From: an uncultured delta proteobacterium
GTDB taxonomy: Bacteria > Desulfobacterota > Binatia > UBA9968
DNA: 64,000 nucleotides
Reading direction: 5' to 3'
Assembly: GCA_963737905.1 (NCBI GenBank)
Contig: CAVTUQ010000030.1
Coordinates: 42,250-106,249 of the forward strand
The notes below the pieces were generated by a model, which was not told where the DNA came from, made no database searches, and saw only the letters and a program-made list of their open reading frames with translations. Both the position numbers and the translations under genes were made by a program. Of the stretch, positions 51,978-64,000 are shown in pieces (the first letter of the stretch is position 1; every line of letters starts with the position of its first letter).

Positions 51978-52364
51978 ATGGAAAGATTCATCGAGGTAGC
52001 TAAGGTTAAAGATATACAGCCCGGCGGAGCGGGACTGATTCACTTTGGATACCAGAGCATCGCCATATTCAATGTCGGGGGAGCATTCTACGCCACCGAC
52101 GAATACTGTACCGGCGATGGGGGATCACTCTCCGAGGGTACACTCATGGGCACCACGATCATATGTTCAGCGGATCGCTGTACCTATTATCTCCCAACGG
52201 GTGAATGTTTGGATGCAACCACAAAGCCGCTGACTACCTACGCTGTCCACATCCATGGAGATCTGATTAAAATTGACCGGGACGAGATTAAGCGGAAACT
52301 CTTTCCGGTCATTGAGCGCCGGAGCTTGAACGATTCGCTTTGGCTTGCAGACATGAGGATCTGA
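51978..52364 (+). CDS. Rieske-fold ferredoxin-like protein lacking both His ligands (NirD-like)
   Basis: IAIFNVGGAFYATDEYCTGDGGSLSEG..IICSAD..YYLPTGEC. Confidence 0.75.
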   Translation: MERFIEVAKVKDIQPGGAGLIHFGYQSIAIFNVGGAFYATDEYCTGDGGSLSEGTLMGTTIICSADRCTYYLPTGECLDATTKPLTTYAVHIHGDLIKIDRDEIKRKLFPVIERRSLNDSLWLADMRI

Positions 52365-52365
52365 G

Positions 52366-52941
52366 GTGATCTCGGAGGATAAGAAGTTGAGTTACCTGCC
52401 GATTCTTTTAAGACTTCGGGACCGCCCTTGCGTAGTGGTGGGGGGCGGGGTAGCCGCCACAAGAAAGGTCGAAGCATTGCTAAAAGCCGACGCGAGGCTG
52501 ACAGTCATCAGCCCGCATGTCACAGAGGTTATCGAAAGGCTTGCCGCAGCCGGCCATTTGCAGTTGGTTAGCAGGCCCTATGCCAGGGGCGATCTCAGAG
52601 GCTTTTATCTGGGCTACGCGGCGACCGGACTCTCCGCTCTCGATGAACAAATAGCCAGGGATGCGGAATCTGAGCACGTATTGTTGAGCGTGGCGGACCG
52701 GCTGTCGCTCGGCGACTTTCTCAGCCCACCGATTATTCAAAGAGGCGACCTCACTATAGCCGTTTCAACGAATGGGAGAAGCCGCGGCTTTGCCCAGCTT
52801 ATGAAGAAAAAATTGGAGCGTCTGATCGGTCCCGAATATGGAGATCTACTCGATATCGTGGAGACTGAACGTTTGGTTACGAAGCGCCCAAACTCGTCTG
52901 CGAAATCCGAGAGATCCCTGCCCAACGAAGCAGCGTCCTAA
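52366..52941 (+). CDS. Precorrin-2 dehydrogenase / sirohydrochlorin ferrochelatase (CysG N-terminal, SirC/Met8-like)
   Basis: YLPILL, VVVGGGVAATRK, AATG, VAD, IAVSTNG. Confidence 0.85.
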   Translation: MISEDKKLSYLPILLRLRDRPCVVVGGGVAATRKVEALLKADARLTVISPHVTEVIERLAAAGHLQLVSRPYARGDLRGFYLGYAATGLSALDEQIARDAESEHVLLSVADRLSLGDFLSPPIIQRGDLTIAVSTNGRSRGFAQLMKKKLERLIGPEYGDLLDIVETERLVTKRPNSSAKSERSLPNEAAS

Positions 52942-53038: not shown

Positions 53039-53927
53039 CTACGCCTCCGCCTTGACGCGTAATTCCATCTGACCGATCTTCTCAATTGTTCCTGTGAGAT
53101 GATCACCGTCGTTGAGCTTGCTCACGCCGGCGGGCGTTCCGGTCGTGATCAGATCCCCCGGCCGGAGGGTCAGGCAGCTCGTGAGAAACCGGATATGTTC
53201 ACGCAGACCGCAAATCATGTCGCTCGTGTGCGCCGTCATGACTTCTTTCCCATTTTGTAGGACCTTGATCGAAAGATTTTGCGGCTCATCAATTTCGTCC
53301 CGGGTCACGATCCACGGCCCCAATGCACTAAAGGTATCAAACCCTTTACGAATATTGCGTGTGTTGTGCATGCCCTTACCCCAGGGGTCGCGCTGGCTGA
53401 TGTCCCAGCAAATCGTGTAACCGAATACATAATTGAGCGATTGCTCCTCGGTGATTTTCCGCGCTCGTTTGCCTATCACCGCGCAAAGTTCGCATTCGAA
53501 ATCAACCAGCTTCGAGATTTTTGGGAGAATAATCGTGTCACCGGGACCGATGATCGATGAAGTGGTCTTAAGAAAGAACTCCGCCATCAAGTCATCCTTG
53601 TTCTTGATCTCCTTGTTCGCGCTGCCCATCCGATCGACCATTTCCGCGCGGTGCGCGTAGTAATTCGCGGCGGCCGCCCATAGAGAACCGGGGTTTGTTA
53701 TCGGGGCGAGCAGTTTCACGGAGCTCAGATCGATACCCCCGGTTCCGGAGGAAGCATCGCGGGCAATCTGCATCGCCGCGGGATTGTTGGCAAGCGCGTC
53801 GATAATTTCGAGCATAGTGTAACCCTGGCGAGCTAAACCCGCCTTAATTCAACGCGTCGCCAATGTTATGAACCTTATCGCCGACGACCGCGCCGGCTTG
53901 ATTATTATTGTAATGGCATATCTTCAT
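53039..53927 (-). CDS. Fumarylacetoacetate hydrolase family protein (frameshift ~53850)
   Basis: NYYAH, FFLK, DFECELCAVIG, DISQRD, RKGFDTF, TGTPAGV. N-terminus MKICHY... lies in another frame from 53927. Confidence 0.88.
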
Positions 53928-54175
53928 GTTTGCCTCCGCTTCTCAAATTCAAAGACTTTCCCCTCATACCTGAAGGTCTCGATAAAGTCCAACACGTCGC
54001 CGGCAAAATTCGCTACTCAAAATCCGAAATTCGAAAGAATTTCCGATCCTCAAAAATCAGAAGGTTCCTCCCTCGACACTCTACCCTCGACCCTCGTGTG
54101 CGTTTGACGACAGTCACCCCGCCGTCGTATTTAGAAGCGGGCGATCTTAAACATGCGAGAAGGAGCAAACAGGGT

Positions 54176-55215
54176 ATGCTGAATCTAACGGTAGCGGTTA
54201 CGAGGAATCTCCGCTTTGAGCCGCTCATCGATGGCACCATCACCTCGAAAATTCTTAATCTCCAATTCGTAGTTACCACGCCGCCAGAGCTTTTCTACCG
54301 TAACCTCAAATACGACGAGTTCGACGTTTTCGAAATGTCTCTCTCCGAACTGGCGATCTCTCGTGAGCAAAGCCCAGGCACGCGATGGCAGTGGAGCGCT
54401 CTGCCCGATATTTCCCGCCAAAGCTTTTCTGTGGTCTGGACTTTACGTGAACCGCCAAGCCGGCATCCGAGGCATCGGCGACTTGCGGGGCAAGCGCGTG
54501 GGCGTGCCGGATTATGCGATGACCGCCGCGCTATGGTTCCGTTCTTTCTTGAAAGAACTTTACGGGATCAAGCCGCAGGAGGTATCCTGGTACATCGGCC
54601 GGCTGAAACAATTCAGCCACGGCGCCATACTCGGGATCGACAAGGATCCTCCGGCCGGTGTTTCGCTGAACTGGTTGACCGAGGAACAAACCTTTGATCG
54701 CATGTTGGACCGCGGCGATCTGGACGCCGCCTACAGCATCGTGCCCAGCCACGACCCCAAGTTGCAGACATTTGGCAACAATATCGACCGTTATGGGGGA
54801 ACGCGAGATCGCTGGCAATCCCCGCCTGCGAAAATTGTTTGCAGATGGGGGCCGCCAATTGATTATCGACTATTTCCGGAAAGACCGGCATCGTGCCAGC
54901 TAATCATACGATTGCCGTCCAAAAGCGTTTGCTCAACGAGCATCCCTGGTTGGCGCTGGAGCTATTCAAGCTCTTCCAAGAGGCTAAACAGGTTGCATAC
55001 GAAAACGCGAAACGCTGGAGCGCGGCTTATTTTTATTTCGAAGGCAACGACGCAGCTAGCCAAGCTAATCTCTTTGGAGACGATCCCTATCCCTATGGCA
55101 TCAAGGACAATCGCAGGATGTTGGAGTTCCTTTCCGCAACTCCCACGAGGAGGGGCTAACCCACGAGCCCGCTCGGGTAGAGGACATTTTCCACCCAACC
55201 ACCTTGGACACTTGA
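54176..55215 (+). CDS. 4,5-dihydroxyphthalate decarboxylase (Pht5)-like protein; multiple frameshifts
   Basis: PLIDG, EFDVFEMSLS, PIFP..F, DLRGKRVGVPDYAMTAALW, PANHTI, FGDDPYPYGI across three frames. Confidence 0.75.
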
Positions 55216-55268
55216 ACCGTATTTCACTTCGTTTCGCAGAAGCCTATCCTTAGGCGAAGGAGACGCCT

Positions 55269-56372
55269 ATGAGCAGTAAATTTCCGACAATCGATGCCGA
55301 CGGCCATCTCGAAGAGGTGCACATCAACTGGAAAGAACGAGTCTCCGAGAAATATCGGCGCATGGCTCCGGAAGAGCGTCCGGCAAGCGACAGCCATTTG
55401 CGACTCACGTTGGAAGGCAAGCCCTGGCCAAAACCCAAGCGGACCTGGGCATCGGCGTGGGCGGACCGTACCGTAAATCCGCATCCTCGACGCGAAGGAA
55501 TGAAGAATCCTAAGGCGCGCCTTGTTGACATGGACAGCGAAGGCATCGATGTGGCCGTGCTCTTCGGAGGGTGGGATTGCGGGGACTATTCCGGCGCTTG
55601 AGGACGCTGCCTTGGCCAACGAACTGGCTCGCGCGCGCAACACCTGGGTGGCGGAATATTGCGCGGAAAATCCTGCGCGTCTAAAGGGGACGGCGGTGCT
55701 GCCGCAACAAGATATCCGGCGGCGGCAGTGGCTGAGCTTAGACGCGCTGTAACCGATCTCGGATTCGTCGGCGTCTCGCTTTTGCCCAATCTGCGCGGGC
55801 GTCACATGGGTGATCCTTATTTCTTTCCTATTTACGAAGAGGCAGAGCGCCTCAACATTCCCTATTTGCGTCCACATGTTCCTGGGCCGTTATGGATCAG
55901 AGGCAACCGGTACTCTGCGTGTCGATAAGTTTTTTTATTCCCACCTGTTCGGACATACTTTTGAACAGATGATTGCTCTTGCGTCGTCTTAGGGGAAGGA
56001 GCTGTTGGACCGCTTTCCAAATCTTCGCTTTGTGTTTTTAGAATCGGGCTGCCGGCTGGCTGCCCTATTGGTTCTATCGTTTGGACGAGCATTATGAAGT
56101 CCTGGGCAATCAGGTGCCGGAACTCAAGACATGCCGAGCAAGCTTCTGGAGCGCGGGCAGCTGTACTTTTCCTGCGAGGCCGATGAGACGGAAATTCCCC
56201 GAGTTATCGAAACCATCGGAGATGACTGGATCGTCTTCGCCTCGGATTACAGCCATTTCGACAGCCGTTTCCCCGGCGCTTCTCAACCCATTATTGAGAA
56301 CGACAGATCAGTGACTCATCCAAGCGCAAGATCCTCAACGACAACGCCCGGCGGCTCTATTCACTGGGCTAG
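55269..56372 (+). CDS. Amidohydrolase_2 family protein; multiple frameshifts
   Basis: IDADGHL, RLVDMDSEGIDVAVLF, ARNTW, FPIYEEAERL, FASDYSHFD in successive frames. Confidence 0.78.
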
Positions 56373-56384
56373 AAAGGGCAATTC

Positions 56385-57334
56385 ATGTCGCGAACAGGTC
56401 GATGCTTTTTCGAGAGTTGGAGTCGCGTTGATCATCGTACATGCTGTCTTTCGATAACGCGCTCGCCGAGAACATCAAGATCGGCATTCCCTCGTTAACC
56501 GTGACCATGATGCCGGTCGCGGTCGCAAAGGAACAGGGCTTCTTCCAAAATGAGGGACTCAACGTTGAAATGGTGCTCATGCCCGCGTCTCTGAACATCA
56601 AAGTACTTCTGAGCGGTGACATCCAATATGCCACAACCATAACCTCCGGGGTCGTGGCTAACGTGCGCGGGGTCAACACGCGAGTCGTGATGTGCTTTGT
56701 CGATCGGCCGCTACTCGACCTCGTTGGGAACCCAGAGATCAACTCGATCGCAGACCTGAAAGGAAAGTTGGTCGGAATCTCTTCCCGGGGGGGATTGCAC
56801 GATGTCACGATGCGACGCATCTTCACGCAATCGGGGATGGATCCTTCGCAAGCGACCTTCATCACCGTCGGAGAGCAGGGCGCGATGTTGACCGGAGTGA
56901 AAACCGGACGGATCTCAGCCGGATTGCTCAACCCGCCCCACAATTTTCTCGCTTACCGGGAGGGACTCAAAAATTTGGGATTCGCCGGAGACTTCTTTCG
57001 CGCTCCGAGCACGGGCATCGTAACTATGCGGGAAACTTTAGAACGTTCTCCGGAACAAGTCCGGCGCCTGACCCGCGCGTTAACCCGCGCGCGGGCGTTT
57101 GCCAGAGAAAACAAACCCGCCACGGTCGCCATCTTGAAGCGCTTTGTCAGACTACAAGATGAAGACTTAGTCTCGAAAATTTATGACTACCACAGGAAGG
57201 CCGAGACACCGGACGGCAAAGTTGACATGGCCCTAGCCAGTGAAACCGTCCGCGACGTCCGTCAAACCGAAGGAATCACGAAGGAGATTCCGGTTAACCA
57301 GGTATTCGACTTCTCATACCTACCCCCACGCTGA
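56385..57334 (+). CDS. NMT1/THI5-type ABC solute-binding protein (5' end frameshifted)
   Basis: PVAVAKEQGFFQNEGL, DLKGKLVG, VFDFSYL. Confidence 0.82.
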
Positions 57335-57455: not shown

Positions 57456-58484
57456 CTATCTGAGTTCCGGCATCACGCGCTCTGCGAATAGTCGGATATT
57501 CTTCATTGCCATTTCCTGCGGCATGCCGCCGAAGTGGAATGTGCCTGAGATAGTCGTCAAACCGGCCGATTCGCGCCATTTCTGAATCGTGTCGACGCAG
57601 CGCTCGGGATCCCCCGCGATCACAAACCCCTCGGTTATCTGAGTCTTGGCGTCGCGCTGGATGAGTAGCCCTGCTTCCTTGCGATCGGTGTCCGCCGCGT
57701 GGTGCACCTCGAGATAGTTTTCTAAGTAAGGCGACGCCTCTTCCACCGCCTGAGCCAAGCTGCTCGACACGTAGATATGAAACTTTCCAAGCACATCGGT
57801 TGCCGTAAAGTCATGCCCGGCCTTGGCCAGTCCATGGCGATAAGCTCTCACGAATCCGGGCAAGCATCTGTGGGTCGCGGTAGAGATACGGCAAGGTCAT
57901 CAAGTGGTAACCGTTTTCACCAGCCCAGCGAAACGAATCTTCGCTGCGTGCGCAACCCGACCCAGATCGGCGGATGCGGGCGTTGCACCGGCTTCGGAAG
58001 GACGGGGACGTTGTTGACGTTGTAGAACTCGCCTTTGAAGTTGACCGGCTTATCGGACCAGGCTTGCCGAATGATTTCCATTCCTTCGACCATCCGTCCC
58101 GGTAGATTCTTCCTGGCGAACGCCCAGCTTTCGGTACTCATGAGCCTCGCTGCCCTTTCCCACGCCAAAGTCCAAACGCCCGTTGGAGACAACATCCACC
58201 ATCGCGTAGGACTCCGCCACATCGAGCGGATTGTGTAGCGGCAACACGTTGATGGCGACGCCCAAACGAATCCGTTTCGTCGTGCGCGCGATTGCCGACA
58301 GAAAGGTCGGCGGATGCGGCAAAGTGCCACCGTACATGGCGAAATGATGCTCCGTGACCCAAACATGATCGTAACCAAGCCGATCCATCTCCTCCATTTG
58401 GCTAAACATCCGCTGATAAAACTCATTGATGGGCCCGTCCAGATCCGGCACATAAGTCGGCAGATAGTGAGCCCCAAATTTCAT
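57456..58484 (-). CDS. LLM-class flavin-dependent oxidoreductase; frameshifted (~58105, ~57955-57860)
   Basis: GYDHVWVTEHHF, IRLGVAI..PLHNP, GRLDFGVGKG, PKPVQRPHPPIW, IAGDPE, RLFAERVMP. Confidence 0.85.
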
Positions 58485-58644
58485 TGCGTTACGATCCATC
58501 TCAGGTCAATTCCTCCGGTAATTCGAATGTAGCCATTTAGAATAAATAGCGAAGCCCCGGCTGTCAACGCAGGTGTGCTCCGGGAGAGACTAGAGGTTAA
58601 CCGTGCCAAAAAACCCGTTTTTCTGCTAGCTCGCGTTTTCAGGA

Positions 58645-58854: not shown

Positions 58855-59829
58855 CTATTTAATCCCTAGCTCCTTGTCGACTTCGCGTTGAATGGTGAAG
58901 TCAAACACGCTCGAAGGAGCTACGGCCTGCGGTAATTTGAGAATCTGGGCATCGAGAATCAGATACTCCTTGATCTCGTCCTCAGTGGGAATGCCCGTCA
59001 CAGTGAATGCGGGTTTCGCTAAACGGTACGACTCCAGGGCAGTCGCCACGTCGGTGTTCCACATCTTCGCGAGCATTTCACTCACCTCTTTTTCATTCTG
59101 CTCAAAATAACGAGCTGCCTTAGATTTGGCGCGGAGAAGCTTCTTCACCAGATCCGGTTTTTCCTGCAAAGTCTTCACGCCGACCGCCAAGCCGTTTTGA
59201 ATGCTAGCGTATTTGTCGACTGCGCTGTCCAGAACATTCATCTTGTATTTGTCACGCGCAAGCAGAACCCACGGCGGGCTGATCGCCGCAACCTGGACTG
59301 TGTTGCTGATCAAACCCTGAAGGTGCCGGCTCTCCTCTCCGCCCGCAATCGTCGTCAGATCCTTGTCGGGATCGAGGCCGGCCAAGCTGATCATTTTTTT
59401 CGCCGCGGTATGCTGGCTGCCGCCGATCGTGGCCGTGGCCAACACTTTTCCCTTGAGATCCTTCACCGACCGATACTCGGGTCGACTGACCAGCCAAAAA
59501 ATCGGACGGCGAAGACTGACGGAGACCACGCGCAATGGCGCGCCGCGCTGGATCGCCCGGATGGCGCTCCCGATGGAGCTCAATCCGGTCAACTCGCCGG
59601 TTACCCCGGCGGCGATCGCCGTATTCGCCGACATTTGCACCAGCAGAGGTTCCAATCCCTCTTCTTGAAAGAATTTTTTTTCCTTGGCGATGAAAAACTC
59701 AATGGAGGTAATCCCGCTGCTTGAATAACTGAGGGTTACCTTTTGAAGCGGCGTTTGGGCGAGTACCGGGTTTTCCTCCAATGAAAAGACAGTTATCAAT
59801 AACAAACAAATCAAGATGGTTTTTCTCAT
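58855..59829 (-). CDS. NMT1/THI5-type ABC solute-binding protein
   Basis: Signal peptide, IAKEKKFFQEEGL, DLKGKVL, GLDPDKD, VFDFTIQREV. Confidence 0.88.
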   Translation of the reverse strand: MRKTILICLLLITVFSLEENPVLAQTPLQKVTLSYSSSGITSIEFFIAKEKKFFQEEGLEPLLVQMSANTAIAAGVTGELTGLSSIGSAIRAIQRGAPLRVVSVSLRRPIFWLVSRPEYRSVKDLKGKVLATATIGGSQHTAAKKMISLAGLDPDKDLTTIAGGEESRHLQGLISNTVQVAAISPPWVLLARDKYKMNVLDSAVDKYASIQNGLAVGVKTLQEKPDLVKKLLRAKSKAARYFEQNEKEVSEMLAKMWNTDVATALESYRLAKPAFTVTGIPTEDEIKEYLILDAQILKLPQAVAPSSVFDFTIQREVDKELGIK

Positions 59830-60049
59830 AATATACCCCGTTGTGTTTTCTCTTTCAGGCATTTTTATTTTATCGCGTTATCTTTGAGTCGCGCGCTGGC
59901 GCGCTCTTCACGGCTGGGGATTCTAGTTTGGATGGTCTAGCGAAGCAAGACGCTTTGGAATTCCCGCACGCCATTCCTCCGGCTCAGCGACGGTCCCCAC
60001 TCTCATTTGCTTTTCCCCGTGAACTTCAGTCGTGGCTAATATTTTCATA

Positions 60050-60182
60050 TTGACAACAAAGCGTTTGCTCGGTTACCCTCCGGTGCAAGATCGGCCCCGT
60101 TGATAGAACCGCAGTCGAAAACGACTTGCGGGCTCGATCGGTCAACCGCTTGCACTGTCGCCCAATAACCGAAAGAGGAGGA
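60050..60182 (+). promoter_or_regulatory. sigma70-like promoter followed by a nested-hairpin leader
   Basis: TTGACA at 60050, TACCCT at 60074. Nested pairs gtgcaag/cttgcac, gttga/tcaac, ccgca/tgcgg, gtcg/cgac. RBS GAGGAGG follows. Confidence 0.5.
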
Positions 60183-60186
60183 GATT

Positions 60187-62094
60187 ATGAGCAATCAGAA
60201 CATCGACCGCCGTTCTTTTTTGAAAGGTGCCGCAGCCACCGCGGCCACGGTCATCGGTAGCAATCTAGCGTCCGGAACCCAACTCGCCGCCAATGCTGCA
60301 GCGGCCCAATCCGACAATTCCAACGCAGAGGCTCACGGTTCGGGCCGATCCTCGGAAAAAATCATCGCCAGGCCCGGCTCTGACTTTATGGTCGATGTCA
60401 TCAAGGCCACCGGCATCGAGTACATCGCTTCTAATCCGGGATCGAGCTTCCGCAGTTTGCAGGAGTCGATCATTAACTACGGCGATAACAAAAAGCCGGA
60501 GTTCCTGACCTGTATGCACGAGGAATCGTCCGTCGGCATGGCGCAAGGCTATGCCAAGGCGGCGGGCAAACCCATGGGTATCATGGCGCACGGGACTGTC
60601 GGGCTGCAGCACGCGACGATGGCGGTTTATAATGCCTGGTGTGACCGGGTTCCGGTCGTTATGTTCGCCGGCAATTTCATGGACGCCGACAAACGCCGGC
60701 CGGGCGTAGAGTGGTATCATTGTGTTCAAGATCCGGCAGCGTTGTTGCGCGATTTCATCAAATGGGACGACCAGCCGGTGTCGCTCCAGCATTTCGCCGA
60801 ATCGGTCATGCGCGCCTATAAGATCGCCACTACGGTACCCATGGGGCCAGTGCTCATCAGCGCCGATGGAGACCTGGCGGAAGAACCGGTGCACGACGAA
60901 AAGAAGCTGCGTATGCCTAAGCTCACGCTGTCAATTCCACCGCAGGGCGACAGCGGTGCGGTAGCCGAAGCGGCCAAGCTGCTCGTCGCAGCCGATCACC
61001 CGGTGATTTTGGCCGACCGTGCTTGCCGCTCGCAGGAGGGTATGCAGCGCTTGGTTGAGCTCGCCGAAGCATTGAATGCGCCGGTGGTCGATATCGGCGG
61101 CCGGATGAATTTTCCCACCAGCCATTATCTTTGCCGTAGCGCAGATCGTCGCTCGCTGGTGGGCCAAGCCGACGTTGTTCTGCTTTTGGAGGTGGCAGAT
61201 TCTTGGGGGCAGTTTAATACCATCAGCGACCCGCACCACGAATACCGGCGGCTCGCTAAGCCCGACGTTAAAATCATCCACATCTCCCTCGGCGACACCC
61301 TGACAAAATCGAACTACCAAGACATGCAGCGTTTCATGCCGGTGGATCTGCCAATCTCCGGCGACGCCCAGGCGACGTTGCCAGCATTGATCGAGGCGGT
61401 GAAGAACGCGACCACCTTGATGCGGCGCGGAGCGCTCACTGACCGCGCGGCGAAGCTTCGCGAAGACCACCGCCGCATGAAAGATCGAGCGCGCGCTGCG
61501 GCAAGCCAGGGCTGGGACGCCAGCCCGTGCAGCACGGCGCGCGTTTCCGCGCAGCTGTACAACATCATCAAAAACGATAAATGGTGTCTCGCCGTATCCA
61601 GCGTGCAGTGGAACCGGAATCTCTGGCCGGCTACGGAGTATCATAATTTCATCGGTGGCTCCGGAGGTGCCGGACAGGGCTATGGCGCGCCCGCCGCCGT
61701 CGGCGCGGCTCTCGCCAACCGGGACAAGGGCATTGTCACTATCTCGATCGAGGGGGACGGCGACTTGATGTATGCGCCGGGCTCACTCTGGACCGCGGCG
61801 CACCACAAGATTCCGCTGCTGATGGTGGTGCATAACAATCGCGCCTATCACCAGGAGGTGATGCACCTGCAAAAAATGGCCGCCCTGCACAATCGCCGTA
61901 TGGACACGGCGGCCATCGGCACGACCATCGAAAACCCCAACATCGACTTCGCCAAGCTCGCGCAATCCATGGGCGTGCACGGCGAAGGGCCGATCAGTGA
62001 CCCGGCGGCCATCGGTCCGGCGCTATCCCGCGCTCTTGCCGTGGTAAAGCGCGGGGAGCCGGCGCTGGTCGATGTAGTTTCTCAAGGGCGCTGA
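60187..62094 (+). CDS. ThDP-dependent enzyme (benzoylformate decarboxylase/ALS superfamily) with a twin-arginine signal peptide
   Basis: DRRSFLKG plus hydrophobic stretch, NPGSS, MHEE (catalytic Glu), GDGDLMY...HNNRAY ThDP motif. Confidence 0.92.
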   Translation: MSNQNIDRRSFLKGAAATAATVIGSNLASGTQLAANAAAAQSDNSNAEAHGSGRSSEKIIARPGSDFMVDVIKATGIEYIASNPGSSFRSLQESIINYGDNKKPEFLTCMHEESSVGMAQGYAKAAGKPMGIMAHGTVGLQHATMAVYNAWCDRVPVVMFAGNFMDADKRRPGVEWYHCVQDPAALLRDFIKWDDQPVSLQHFAESVMRAYKIATTVPMGPVLISADGDLAEEPVHDEKKLRMPKLTLSIPPQGDSGAVAEAAKLLVAADHPVILADRACRSQEGMQRLVELAEALNAPVVDIGGRMNFPTSHYLCRSADRRSLVGQADVVLLLEVADSWGQFNTISDPHHEYRRLAKPDVKIIHISLGDTLTKSNYQDMQRFMPVDLPISGDAQATLPALIEAVKNATTLMRRGALTDRAAKLREDHRRMKDRARAAASQGWDASPCSTARVSAQLYNIIKNDKWCLAVSSVQWNRNLWPATEYHNFIGGSGGAGQGYGAPAAVGAALANRDKGIVTISIEGDGDLMYAPGSLWTAAHHKIPLLMVVHNNRAYHQEVMHLQKMAALHNRRMDTAAIGTTIENPNIDFAKLAQSMGVHGEGPISDPAAIGPALSRALAVVKRGEPALVDVVSQGR

Positions 62095-62114
62095 CACTTA
62101 GAGGAGGAGCCAGA

Positions 62115-62468
62115 ATGTATAAGCTAGTTTCAGCCGCGTTATTGGCGTTGGCCGCGTCCACTGTGTTCGCACAAGACCCGCCACCCCCGGGTTCCGCCGA
62201 CCGCGGCCAACAGGCCTTTATGAAGTATATGTGCTATACATGTCACGGCACCGTTGGCCAGGGCGCCGACCGGGGCACGGGTCCTAAACTGGCGCCGGGG
62301 ATGCTTCCTTACGCAGCCTTTGCGCTCCAGGTGCGTACGCCGCGTCTCGACATGCCGCCCTACCGCCAACAATTTCTGAGCGACCAGGAACTCGCCGATA
62401 TCTACGCTTACCTCTCGTTGACCAAACCGTCGCCCGCGGCGAAGGATATTCCGCTGCTCAACTTCTAA
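62115..62468 (+). CDS. Monoheme c-type cytochrome
   Basis: Sec signal ending VFA-Q, CYTCH heme motif, distal Met in DMPPY, LSDQELADIYAYL. Confidence 0.92.
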   Translation: MYKLVSAALLALAASTVFAQDPPPPGSADRGQQAFMKYMCYTCHGTVGQGADRGTGPKLAPGMLPYAAFALQVRTPRLDMPPYRQQFLSDQELADIYAYLSLTKPSPAAKDIPLLNF

Positions 62469-62605
62469 GCAACCATGCGGGAGCACAGCCATCGCTTTGC
62501 TTCCGCTTTCGTCTCCATAAAGGCACGATTACGAACCTGAGATAAGGTATTTCCAGGTTCAGCGTTCAGTTTCCTTGACCTTGAACATTGAACTTTGAAC
62601 TCGTG

Positions 62606-64000
62606 TCACTTGCCCACCATTTTTTTTTCGAGAAAGTCGCGCCAGTTAGTCGCAACTTTGTCCTTTAACTCCCGGCTGGCGCCGCTGACTTTGGGAAACT
62701 TATCGATCCACTCGTAGGGGCGCGTGGCATCGATGACGGCGCGCGAGCTGTGGCCGACCTCGTCGCGCGGGATGCGAGGGTCCAGGGGGCCACTCCAGGC
62801 ACGTCTGAGAATCTCGATGGACTGCGTCGGGTCAGAGCGGCTGCTGAGCACCCACAAGACCTCTTCGGAATCCGTGATATCTACATCATCGTCAACGACA
62901 ATCACGTACCGGCCGAGATAGGCGCCGGTGCGGCATTGACTGGCGATTATGCCGGTTTGACGCGCATGACCTGGATAGCGCTGCTTGATCGAAACCACAG
63001 TTAAGAATCTGCCGCACGACGGATGGCACCATACCCCTTTGACGTCCGGCACTCCCGCTTCGTCGAGCGCGTTCCAAACGAGGGATGAACGCATCAGCGA
63101 GAAATGAATATTGTCGCCGGCGGAAGGCTTGAGCAGCGGGAAGCCGCACAGGATCGGATCGTTGCGGAAGTAGAGTGCTTTGATTTGAATGACCGGCACC
63201 GCCGGCTGATTACTCGCGTAGTAGCCCGTCCACTCTCCAAAAGGACCTTCGGGCAAAAGATCGTCAGGTGCCACTTCGCCTTCGATGGCCATCTCCGCGT
63301 CTGCGGGAATTGGCAAACCGGTGAGCGGTCCTTTCACCACTTCCAACGGCCTGCCGAGAACTCCGCCGGCGTAATCGTATTCATTAACGCGATTCGGCAC
63401 ATCGGTGGATGCAAAGACGAAGTTGATTGGATGATGACCGAAAGAAACCGCAATCGGCAACGGTTTTCCACGCGCGTGATATTTGTCCTTGTGCACGCGG
63501 CCGTGCTTCCCCGGCGACATGTGTAAAGCCAACCGATCCGGGCCGTGAACCATAATGCGGTAGGTGCCGACGTTGACCCAGTCCTCTTCCGGATCGCGCG
63601 TGATCACTAAATCATCCGTGCCGATATAGCGTCCGCCGTCGAGCTCATGCCAGCGTGGCACAGGAAATTTCAAAACGTTGATCTCTTTGCCTTCTTTGAC
63701 GTTCCCAAAGAGCGGACCGGTGGAAACCGTCTTGGCGGGAATCGGCGTAATCTTCTTCACCTGGTGGCGCCAAGCCTGGACGAAATCCATGTCGCTCATG
63801 CCGGCCTTCATCCCGAGGGTAAGTGCCAAGCGCCCGACGGAGGAAACCAAATTGGCCGCGACACGATAGCCTTGCGGATAATCTTTGATGCGATCGAAAA
63901 GGATCGCCGGCCGATTCTTTGATCGCTCGTTGATGATTTCCGTGAGGGTCGACAGCTCGAGGTCCCAGTCGACTCCGTCCACGGTCATCAATTGGCCGAG
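62606..64000 (-). CDS. UbiD family prFMN-dependent decarboxylase (5' end beyond window)
   Basis: DGGRYI, NVGTYR, EGPFGEWTGYY, VVDDDVD, LDP, IDATRP. Confidence 0.93.
   Translation of the reverse strand, partial: LGQLMTVDGVDWDLELSTLTEIINERSKNRPAILFDRIKDYPQGYRVAANLVSSVGRLALTLGMKAGMSDMDFVQAWRHQVKKITPIPAKTVSTGPLFGNVKEGKEINVLKFPVPRWHELDGGRYIGTDDLVITRDPEEDWVNVGTYRIMVHGPDRLALHMSPGKHGRVHKDKYHARGKPLPIAVSFGHHPINFVFASTDVPNRVNEYDYAGGVLGRPLEVVKGPLTGLPIPADAEMAIEGEVAPDDLLPEGPFGEWTGYYASNQPAVPVIQIKALYFRNDPILCGFPLLKPSAGDNIHFSLMRSSLVWNALDEAGVPDVKGVWCHPSCGRFLTVVSIKQRYPGHARQTGIIASQCRTGAYLGRYVIVVDDDVDITDSEEVLWVLSSRSDPTQSIEILRRAWSGPLDPRIPRDEVGHSSRAVIDATRPYEWIDKFPKVSGASRELKDKVATNWRDFLEKKMVGK

Follow-up and report, generated by a model that had tools for sequence, protein, structure and literature searches.

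Why would a bacterium send a thiamine diphosphate (ThDP)-dependent enzyme out of its cytoplasm, and why would a gene for a small cytochrome c lie directly behind it? The question is raised by two adjacent genes in a 64,000-nucleotide stretch of contig CAVTUQ010000030.1 (positions 42,250 to 106,249, forward strand; hereafter the window) from assembly GCA_963737905.1, an uncultured delta proteobacterium of the Binatia. The first gene encodes a ThDP enzyme with a twin-arginine translocation (Tat) leader and the second a cytochrome c, probably of class I. No characterised ThDP enzyme is known to us that acts anywhere but in the cytoplasm or an organelle matrix, and the oxidative ones that we know of pass their electrons to lipoamide, flavin adenine dinucleotide (FAD) or iron-sulfur clusters. 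A preliminary description, made from the DNA letters, had proposed a two-component periplasmic redox system, and that reading is supported as far as sequence, comparison and structure prediction reach. We think it probable that the pair forms a periplasmic ThDP-dependent oxidoreductase, in which the enzyme oxidises a 2-oxoacid or an aldehyde and its own cytochrome c takes up the electrons. More tentatively, electrons might move directly, one at a time, from the ThDP enamine to the c-type haem with no flavin or metal cluster between, in what would be an extracytoplasmic family; we regard this as a serious possibility rather than as our expectation.

The two genes and their leaders

The two open reading frames (ORFs) lie on the same strand, at 60187..62094 (+, 635 amino acids) and 62115..62468 (+, 117 amino acids), with 20 bp between them. 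Each is preceded by a GGAGG-type ribosome-binding site, as read from the sequence, and the first opens with MSNQNIDRRSFLKG and stops with TGA at 62092-62094. The preliminary description was right both about the ThDP enzyme with its twin-arginine leader, which is borne out by the ORF, by Pfam TAT_signal and by three TPP_enzyme domains, and about the cytochrome c gene 20 bp downstream with a ribosome-binding site of its own. Along the strand, the features are:

60175..60183, + strand, ribosome-binding site of the ThDP enzyme gene, GAGGAGGAG, read from the sequence, 3 bases 5' of the ATG at 60187
60187..62094, + strand, gene of the Tat-leader ThDP enzyme, 635 amino acids (ORF; Pfam TAT_signal and TPP_enzyme_N/M/C; AlphaFold2; Foldseek)
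60187..60297, + strand, twin-arginine signal peptide, residues 1-37 (Pfam TAT_signal; RRxFLK-type motif in orthologues)
60376..60675, + strand, core of the PYR (N-terminal ThDP-binding) domain with E112 and H135 (Pfam TPP_enzyme_N, residues 64-163)
60961..61389, + strand, middle (TH3) domain with H313 in an FPTSH motif (Pfam TPP_enzyme_M, residues 259-401)
61609..62076, + strand, PP (C-terminal diphosphate-binding) domain with G523-D524-G525...N550-N551 (Pfam TPP_enzyme_C, residues 475-630)
61843..61914, + strand, enzyme residues 553-576, the helix after the NN motif and the next loop (interface in the complex prediction; clade-specific conservation)
62100..62109, + strand, ribosome-binding site of the cytochrome c gene, AGAGGAGGAG, read from the sequence, 5 bases 5' of the ATG at 62115
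62115..62468, + strand, gene of the monohaem cytochrome c, probably class I, 117 amino acids (ORF; Pfam Cytochrome_CBB3 and Cytochrom_C; AlphaFold2)
62115..62171, + strand, Sec-type signal peptide of the cytochrome, residues 1-19, ending VFA with Q next (inspection; hydrophobic leader in homologues)
62232..62246, + strand, haem-binding motif C40-Y-T-C43-H44 (C40, C43 and H44 invariant in 63 sequences)
62352..62354, + strand, M80, from its position the probable sixth haem ligand, in a PR..MP.Y stretch (invariant in 63 sequences)
62430..62465, + strand, C-terminal tail of the cytochrome, ..AAKDIPLLNF, predicted to lie on enzyme residues 439-459 (P113, L114 and L115 at least 90% conserved)

The leader of the enzyme reads DRRSFLKGAAATAATVIG...LAANA, with a further A next. 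Its parts, D7-R8-R9-S-F-L-K13, then a hydrophobic stretch, then A35-N36-A37, agree with the Tat consensus (S/T-R-R-x-F-L-K), hydrophobic stretch and AxA site, and cleavage after A35-N36-A37 is likely by inspection. Pfam places TAT_signal on residues 5-22 (24.5 bits against a cut-off of 22.7). The preliminary description had singled out a poorly conserved Tat motif as something that could overturn it, and the motif proves to be kept: an RRxFLK-type motif stands 5' of the GSDFMVD fold start in 76 of 79 orthologous ORFs, the window's own included, and the three exceptions are an N-terminally cut ORF (locus L010), a contig edge (L052) and a frameshifted gene (L074). The linker that follows varies among orthologues, while the leader is kept across phyla. 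Among 60 leaderless relatives, whose median N-terminal extension is 8 residues, the leader was found in none, the two matches to a regular expression sitting inside the first fold helix. When 77 leader-bearing and 60 leaderless rows were placed in a FastTree tree with the leader columns excluded, the leader-bearing rows made up one side of a single branch with support 100, although part of this separation arises because the two sets of rows were drawn from different score ranges of the searches. The host genome encodes TatC (two matches above the Pfam cut-off, 239.1 and 225.6 bits). Taken together, these observations make export of the enzyme by Tat highly likely.

Behind the leader lie TPP_enzyme_N at residues 64-163 (74.8 bits), TPP_enzyme_M at 259-401 (54.9 bits) and TPP_enzyme_C at 475-630 (85.2 bits), all above the Pfam cut-offs; Pfam, model and Foldseek agree on the order PYR, middle (TH3), PP, as in the POX/ALS/BFD-fold superfamily. 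None of the best 25 of the 55 NCBIfam models that matched the enzyme reached its cut-off. The highest score came from NF006203 (PRK08327; 277.6 bits against a cut-off of 456), followed by the benzoylformate decarboxylase (BFD) model NF005485 (184.9 against 493), and the pyruvate oxidase model NF006377 gave 99.7 bits against 742. By sequence, the solved structures closest to the enzyme, all of them flavin-free, are a BFD-like protein (4q9d, E 1.2e-33), HKA synthase (8x3x, deposited as BbmA), Pseudomonas BFD and benzaldehyde lyase. An AlphaFold2 model from a 73-row alignment has a mean predicted local distance difference test score (pLDDT) of 91.3, with residues 1-5 and 19-54 below 50, disordered as expected of a leader plus linker. 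Foldseek assigns this model to the ThDP decarboxylase fold with probability 1.00 to many members (template-modelling (TM) scores of 0.75-0.86 normalised to target, 17-23% identity), and no subfamily stands out.

The residues needed to hold and activate the cofactor appear to be in place. E112, which aligns with the cofactor-activating Glu of BFD, is invariant in the 73 aligned sequences, as are D524, G525 and N551. The ThDP diphosphate/Mg2+ motif has the spacing GDG-X(about 24-27)-NN, and 24 residues separate G523-D524-G525 from N550-N551 here. In a HMMER alignment to Pseudomonas BFD (9v6f), S86, H135 and H313 fall on what we take to be the BFD catalytic residues Ser26, His70 and His281, and the Tat clade retains them in 75/77, 77/77 and 77/77 rows, respectively; at about 21% identity, their equivalence is provisional. 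Positions 5, 6 and 9 after the NN motif, which we take to line the active site by comparison with BFD A460/F464 and Zymomonas pyruvate decarboxylase I472/E473/I476, are Q556, E557 and H560. The residues of the predicted pocket (S86, H135, H313, Q556, E557, H560) are polar, which mildly favours a small polar or anionic carbonyl substrate, and retention of a putative BFD-type Ser/His/His set would favour a step in which a 2-oxoacid is decarboxylated. Both are leads rather than results.

The second ORF product matches Cytochrome_CBB3 (43.9 bits) and Cytochrom_C (37.5 bits against a cut-off of 21.3) in Pfam. It carries a single CxxCH, CYTCH (C40, C43, H44), and G31, C40, C43, H44, G50, P76 and M80 are invariant in 63 aligned cytochromes; one CxxCH and an invariant M80 fit the His/Met monohaem cytochrome of the preliminary description. 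The same alignment shows at least 90% conservation of the C-terminal IPLL tail. At the N-terminus, MYKLVSAALLALAASTVFA followed by QD resembles a Sec signal peptide by inspection, homologues in 62 loci begin with a hydrophobic leader, and export looks like the Sec type. The AlphaFold2 model (pLDDT 80.8) is nearest in Foldseek to cytochromes c6, c551 and c552 and the NirS c-domain, with TM scores of 0.58-0.71 normalised to target for the first three and weak E-values throughout (4e-3 and up). The host genome has three matches to cytochrome c assembly proteins (Cytochrom_C_asm) above the Pfam cut-off.

Pairing and predicted complex

Do the two genes belong together? A scan of one genome per species, covering 185,579 species genomes, confirmed at least 574 related stretches. 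The record titles of the best 80 name Binatia or 'delta proteobacterium' metagenome-assembled genomes (MAGs), Burkholderiales (Limnohabitans, Usitatibacteraceae, Casimicrobiaceae), Acidobacteriota, a Rokubacteria MAG and others. Metagenome relatives, among the matches listed, include 120 proteins at 77-93% identity with generic names only. Representatives clustered at 50% identity fall into about ten full-length clusters (44-56% identity, 620-665 residues) that align from residues 3-7, and a next tier (about 40% identity, about 600 residues) that aligns only from residues 43-64.

Using tblastn with the window cytochrome (E <= 1e-3), we found a cytochrome homologue near the enzyme gene in 75 of these 80 loci and within 400 bp of the enzyme match in 64; the match at L086 is weak, its ORF running out of frame after the haem site. 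The homologue lies downstream on the same strand in 36 loci, downstream and convergent in 34 and upstream on the same strand in 5, so adjacency survives rearrangement. Loss of the cytochrome linkage was the other finding that would have spoken against the preliminary description, and the linkage in fact holds across Binatia, Burkholderiales, Acidobacteriota and Rokubacteria records. Clustering of ORFs from the 80 loci and the window revealed no third family shared by more than 14 of the 81 loci, shadow ORFs inside the enzyme gene aside, and the conserved unit is therefore two genes.

The same association is seen within genomes. The window's own genome has 25 ThDP-enzyme matches, of which only the window copy spans residues 1-59, and a single copy of this cytochrome; its seven nearest paralogues have neither a leader nor a cytochrome within 1.5 kb flanks. 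Among 41 related genomes, five contain the cytochrome and three the leader-type enzyme (E <= 1e-160), which always adjoins a cytochrome, and one genome (G173) has two complete pairs on different contigs. Each of the two matches to the cytochrome alone is a fragment, truncated by a contig end on the flank that should carry the enzyme. Neither gene was found in the other 36 of the 41, and in a phylum-wide sample of 151 genomes, only 4 of them from the same class, the cytochrome occurred in one, the window's own. A mobile module of two genes would fit this pattern, scattered within one family yet present in several phyla. We consider a functional partnership between enzyme and cytochrome very probable.

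Whether the partners might also touch was addressed with a complex prediction from the mature enzyme (residues 58-635, one chain), the mature cytochrome (residues 21-117) and a riding haem. The median score was 0.67, against 0.01 for the best of three controls; of 80 solved complexes, 58 reach this mark, as do 2 of 110 mismatched pairs, counts that hold only roughly here given the custom alignments and the small molecule used. Three runs agreed in at least 80% of contacts, with partner pLDDT of at least 87. This prediction supports direct binding, and because we know of no solved complex of a ThDP enzyme with a cytochrome c, it seems unlikely that the model passed by reproducing a known structure.

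The predicted interface involves enzyme residues 347-348, 433-459, 473-481, 553-576 and 633-635 and cytochrome residues 37-53 (around CxxCH), 78-88 (around M80) and the tail, 106-117, with the lowest expected errors between cytochrome 109, 112, 114 and 115 and enzyme 439-455. Segment 553-576 starts two residues past the NN motif. One face of its helix (V558, M559, Q562, K563, A565, A566) is predicted to touch the cytochrome, and the opposite face (Q556, E557, H560) is predicted to line the ThDP site, on the equivalences given above. In the model, therefore, the haem-binding segment sits on the outer face of a helix whose inner face should line the ThDP site. Thirty enzyme positions are specific to the Tat clade, that is, at least 90% conserved within it and at most 15% shared with leaderless relatives, and 553-576 holds six of them (Q556, E557, M559, Q562, M564, H568; hypergeometric p = 8e-4). 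At the position of H568, all 60 leaderless paralogues have Arg.

Some individual sequences deserve mention in their own right. One cytochrome homologue (L031:1-396) has the motif CFSCL, without the His, and another (L088:7955-8296) has Asn after CxxCH where Gly is usual; each may be a sequencing error or a real variant. At two Acidobacteriota loci (L083:8054-8587 and L085:7913-8467) two successive cytochrome c matches follow the enzyme gene, as tandem genes or a dihaem protein. With the cytochrome as query, 10 longer proteins were matched, and two of them have ThDP domains (P0271 and P0279). We rejected these apparent fusions as Rosetta-stone evidence: they look like frameshift artefacts, because an Arg/Ala-rich out-of-frame stretch lies at each join. 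Public gene calls of this type could mislead surveys of domain architecture.

Proposed mechanism and competing explanations

How might such a pair work? We propose that the ThDP enzyme would fold and take up its cofactors ThDP and Mg2+ before leaving the cytoplasm, and that it would be exported by Tat in its folded form, losing its leader, while the cytochrome would be exported by Sec and receive its haem in the periplasm. There the proteins would bind each other, with the haem edge of the cytochrome on the outer face of the helix after the enzyme's NN motif, the inner face of the same helix lining the ThDP site, and the IPLL tail of the cytochrome serving as an anchor. ThDP would add to a carbonyl substrate, most likely a 2-oxoacid that is then decarboxylated or alternatively an aldehyde, to give the carbanion/enamine (Breslow) intermediate. 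Instead of being protonated, this intermediate would be oxidised by haem c in two one-electron steps, the resulting acyl-ThDP would be hydrolysed to a carboxylic acid, and the electrons would continue to the oxidases of the respiratory chain. Chemistry of this kind has precedents: one-electron acceptors such as ferricyanide oxidise the enamines that form on ThDP in non-redox enzymes, and pyruvate:ferredoxin oxidoreductase (PFOR) proceeds via a ThDP radical.

Placed beside known systems, the module would combine two known kinds, the oxidative ThDP enzyme and the periplasmic pair of dehydrogenase and cytochrome c, in a combination for which no characterised member is known. With BFD (MdlC, EC 4.1.1.7; 1bfd, 4q9d, 6qsi) the enzyme shares the three-domain ThDP fold (TM 0.78-0.86 normalised to target), the activating Glu, the GDG...NN motif and the residues aligned with Ser26/His70/His281; the flavin-free BFD group also includes benzaldehyde lyase (2uz1), HKA synthase (8x3x) and 2-hydroxyacyl-CoA lyase (7pt4). 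It differs from that group in its identity of only 20-23% and in missing the NF005485 cut-off, and whereas BFD is cytoplasmic and non-redox, this enzyme has a Tat leader and a dedicated cytochrome c, with Gln556 and His560 at the positions of the BFD hydrophobic pocket residues A460 and F464. The nearest family is that of the leaderless PRK08327-type paralogues (NF006203, 'thiamine pyrophosphate-requiring protein'; 35-43% identity, seven copies in the genome), of which we know no characterised member. These paralogues and the Tat clade have R170, R171, W176, H178, K192, W193, H560 and R570 in common. The window's enzyme misses the NF006203 cut-off (277.6 against 456), and the Tat clade is split off by the support-100 branch. 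The paralogues have the leader in 0/60 cases and, in the window's own genome, no cytochrome in 1.5 kb flanks, and the 30 clade-specific positions are conserved only on the Tat side.

If our reading is true, the reaction would resemble those of PoxB and PFOR, in which a ThDP enamine is oxidised to acyl-ThDP and the electrons go to an acceptor (in PoxB, to respiration). PoxB is a pyruvate:quinone oxidoreductase that was formerly filed as pyruvate dehydrogenase (cytochrome). Those enzymes, however, are cytoplasmic or on the inner membrane face and use FAD (PoxB) or [4Fe-4S] clusters (PFOR) as first acceptor, whereas the only encoded redox partner here is a c-type haem protein predicted to lie outside the cytoplasm. 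The layout is also like that of SorAB sulfite dehydrogenase and flavocytochrome c sulfide dehydrogenase, a comparison in which binding on our side is predicted: a Tat-exported, cofactor-bearing catalytic subunit is encoded next to a Sec-exported small cytochrome c that takes its electrons. Unlike SorAB-type systems, this one would use ThDP instead of molybdopterin or FAD, and the catalytic subunits are unrelated in sequence.

Several points weigh against the oxidoreductase reading. The active-site equivalences are drawn from alignments at 20-22% identity. The complex was predicted with a single enzyme chain, whereas enzymes with this fold form dimers or tetramers whose active sites lie where subunits meet. 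Residue by residue, the overlap between interface and clade-specific positions is not significant (4/30, p = 0.21). The loci studied are the best 80 of at least 574 confirmed matches, at 54-88% identity, and within the DNA available per locus five of them have no cytochrome match: L055 stops at the enzyme gene, and the DNA of L024 and L026 extends less than 2.3 kb downstream, but L064 and L068 lack a match despite full flanks. Finally, one RNA library contains a 371-base contig that falls within the enzyme gene and shows 5 differences from it, along with a 42-base piece; because DNA can occur in RNA libraries, the contig does not show transcription and is not counted as evidence.

The alternative that survives best is a flavocytochrome-like variant, in which FAD in the middle domain, as in pyruvate oxidase, would relay electrons from ThDP to haem c. 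FAD-containing enzymes share the fold (acetohydroxyacid synthase, glyoxylate carboligase, pyruvate oxidase), with Foldseek matches to 8i01, 5wkc and 6den at TM 0.75-0.76 normalised to target; cofactor-bearing proteins are typical Tat cargo, and a flavin would make it easier for a two-electron donor to feed a one-electron acceptor. We nevertheless consider this variant unlikely. The nearest relatives (BFD 4q9d, 4-hydroxybenzoylformate decarboxylase 6qsi, benzaldehyde lyase, HKA synthase 8x3x) are flavin-free, and the pyruvate oxidase model NF006377 falls far below its cut-off. The first strand of the middle domain, PVILADRACRS, appears by eye to be without the glycine-rich turn of FAD/ADP binders, and the cytochrome site is predicted on the PP domain beside the ThDP helix, not on the middle domain.

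Another possibility, no more probable, is a non-redox periplasmic lyase, decarboxylase or carboligase, with the cytochrome serving some other enzyme or having a structural or regulatory role. The characterised enzymes nearest to the ThDP enzyme (benzoylformate decarboxylase, benzaldehyde lyase, 2-hydroxyacyl-CoA lyase and HKA synthase) are indeed non-redox, the BFD-type Ser/His/His is retained, and in the 34 of 80 loci where the cytochrome gene is convergent it is therefore not co-transcribed with the enzyme. Against this stand the dearth of alternative redox partners (no third conserved gene, the maximum being 14/81 loci), the occurrence of the cytochrome subfamily only beside the enzyme in 41 related genomes and once in the own genome, the direct binding supported by the complex prediction, and the leaderless paralogues, which have no cytochrome in 1.5 kb flanks.

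Very improbable, in our view, is a reversed or protective role, in which the cytochrome would donate to the enzyme or scavenge electrons or radicals that leak from the ThDP intermediate. A His/Met class I cytochrome c can be donor or acceptor and its sequence fixes no direction, but flow from the cytochrome to the ThDP intermediate would be strongly uphill, because the ThDP enamine/acyl couple lies far below the potential of a His/Met c-type cytochrome; moreover, the host's haem-copper oxidases (two matches to subunit I above the Pfam cut-off) can accept electrons from cytochrome c. Least credible is that the RR motif is a fortuitous N-terminal extension or that the genes are decaying, for although several genes just upstream are split and the assembly is 87.5% complete with 6.7% (6.69%) contamination, both ORFs are intact with strong ribosome-binding sites, the leader stays in 76/79 orthologues across phyla while the linker varies, close homologues are abundant (at least 120 at 77-93% identity) and the genome encodes TatC.

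The preliminary description knew of no characterised example of such a pair, and our literature searches, with subscription journals largely outside their scope, agree, finding no description of a Tat-exported ThDP enzyme with a cytochrome c. Passages of PMC6050957 and PMC3305326 mention thiamine only in unrelated contexts. If the oxidoreductase reading proves true, ThDP catalysis would gain a new compartment and a new electron acceptor: the enzyme would be the first extracytoplasmic ThDP enzyme, holo-ThDP proteins would be a new class of Tat cargo, and haem c, if it takes the electrons directly, would offer a fourth natural oxidation route for the ThDP carbanion/enamine, beside lipoamide, flavin and iron-sulfur clusters. 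In a family that would be widespread in soil and freshwater bacteria, cells could respire small carbonyls (2-oxoacids, aldehydes) without importing them, a new entry of organic carbon into the respiration of abundant uncultured soil and freshwater Binatia, Burkholderiales and Acidobacteriota. Since the module has only two genes, with at least 574 related loci, these ideas are directly testable by expression and assay.

Host genome and neighbouring genes

No Rfam match at E <= 0.1 occurs in 59700-62800, and hence no thiamine pyrophosphate (TPP) riboswitch there; promoter-like and terminator-like sites are no more frequent than in shuffled sequence. We considered shared neighbours as a clue to the substrate and rejected them, as the clade-specific neighbours (solute-binding proteins, an MFS transporter, a porin-like protein, cupins, TctC, a molybdenum (Mo)-hydroxylase with a 2Fe-2S subunit, SDR) agree on no pathway. 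Large and 2Fe-2S subunits of an aldehyde-oxidase-type Mo-hydroxylase lie near the module in 8-9 Burkholderiales/Acidobacteriota loci (listed with this observation are L019, L023, L030, L034, L037, L038, L054, L057, L066 and L081), which may hint at aldehyde metabolism, though it is clade-specific.

The 25-member set of ThDP superfamily enzymes in the window's own genome is unusually large and includes a tandem pair (G000:C25:226950-230562). Two of its members, G000:C4:76170-77906 and G000:C24:5666-7402 (L002 and L003), are apparently the same paralogue, with identical scores and upstream translation, which suggests duplicated contigs in the bin.

Upstream of the intact ThDP enzyme and cytochrome genes, several genes in the window are broken: a luciferase-like monooxygenase is fragmented into 57456-57863 and 58050-58499 (-) plus a third overlapping ORF, an Amidohydro_2 gene lies in pieces at 55269-56457, and a gene without a Pfam match is spread across three frames at 53930-55253. 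The splits between 53930 and 58499 reflect either gene decay or indel errors in the assembly. Other neighbours are a UbiD-family decarboxylase, convergent and running off the window (62606-63991, -), two NMT1/SsuA-like solute-binding proteins (58855-59862, -, and 56441-57334, +) and a fumarylacetoacetate-hydrolase-family protein (53039-53815, -). The neighbourhood looks like one of aromatic or organic-acid catabolism, and none of these UbiD-family, NMT1/SsuA-like and fumarylacetoacetate-hydrolase-family neighbours is conserved beside the module in other genomes. Further upstream, the stretch 51978-52941 encodes a small Rieske-like [2Fe-2S] protein and, directly after it, a sirohaem-synthase-like NAD-binding protein whose start lies 2 bp past the preceding stop.

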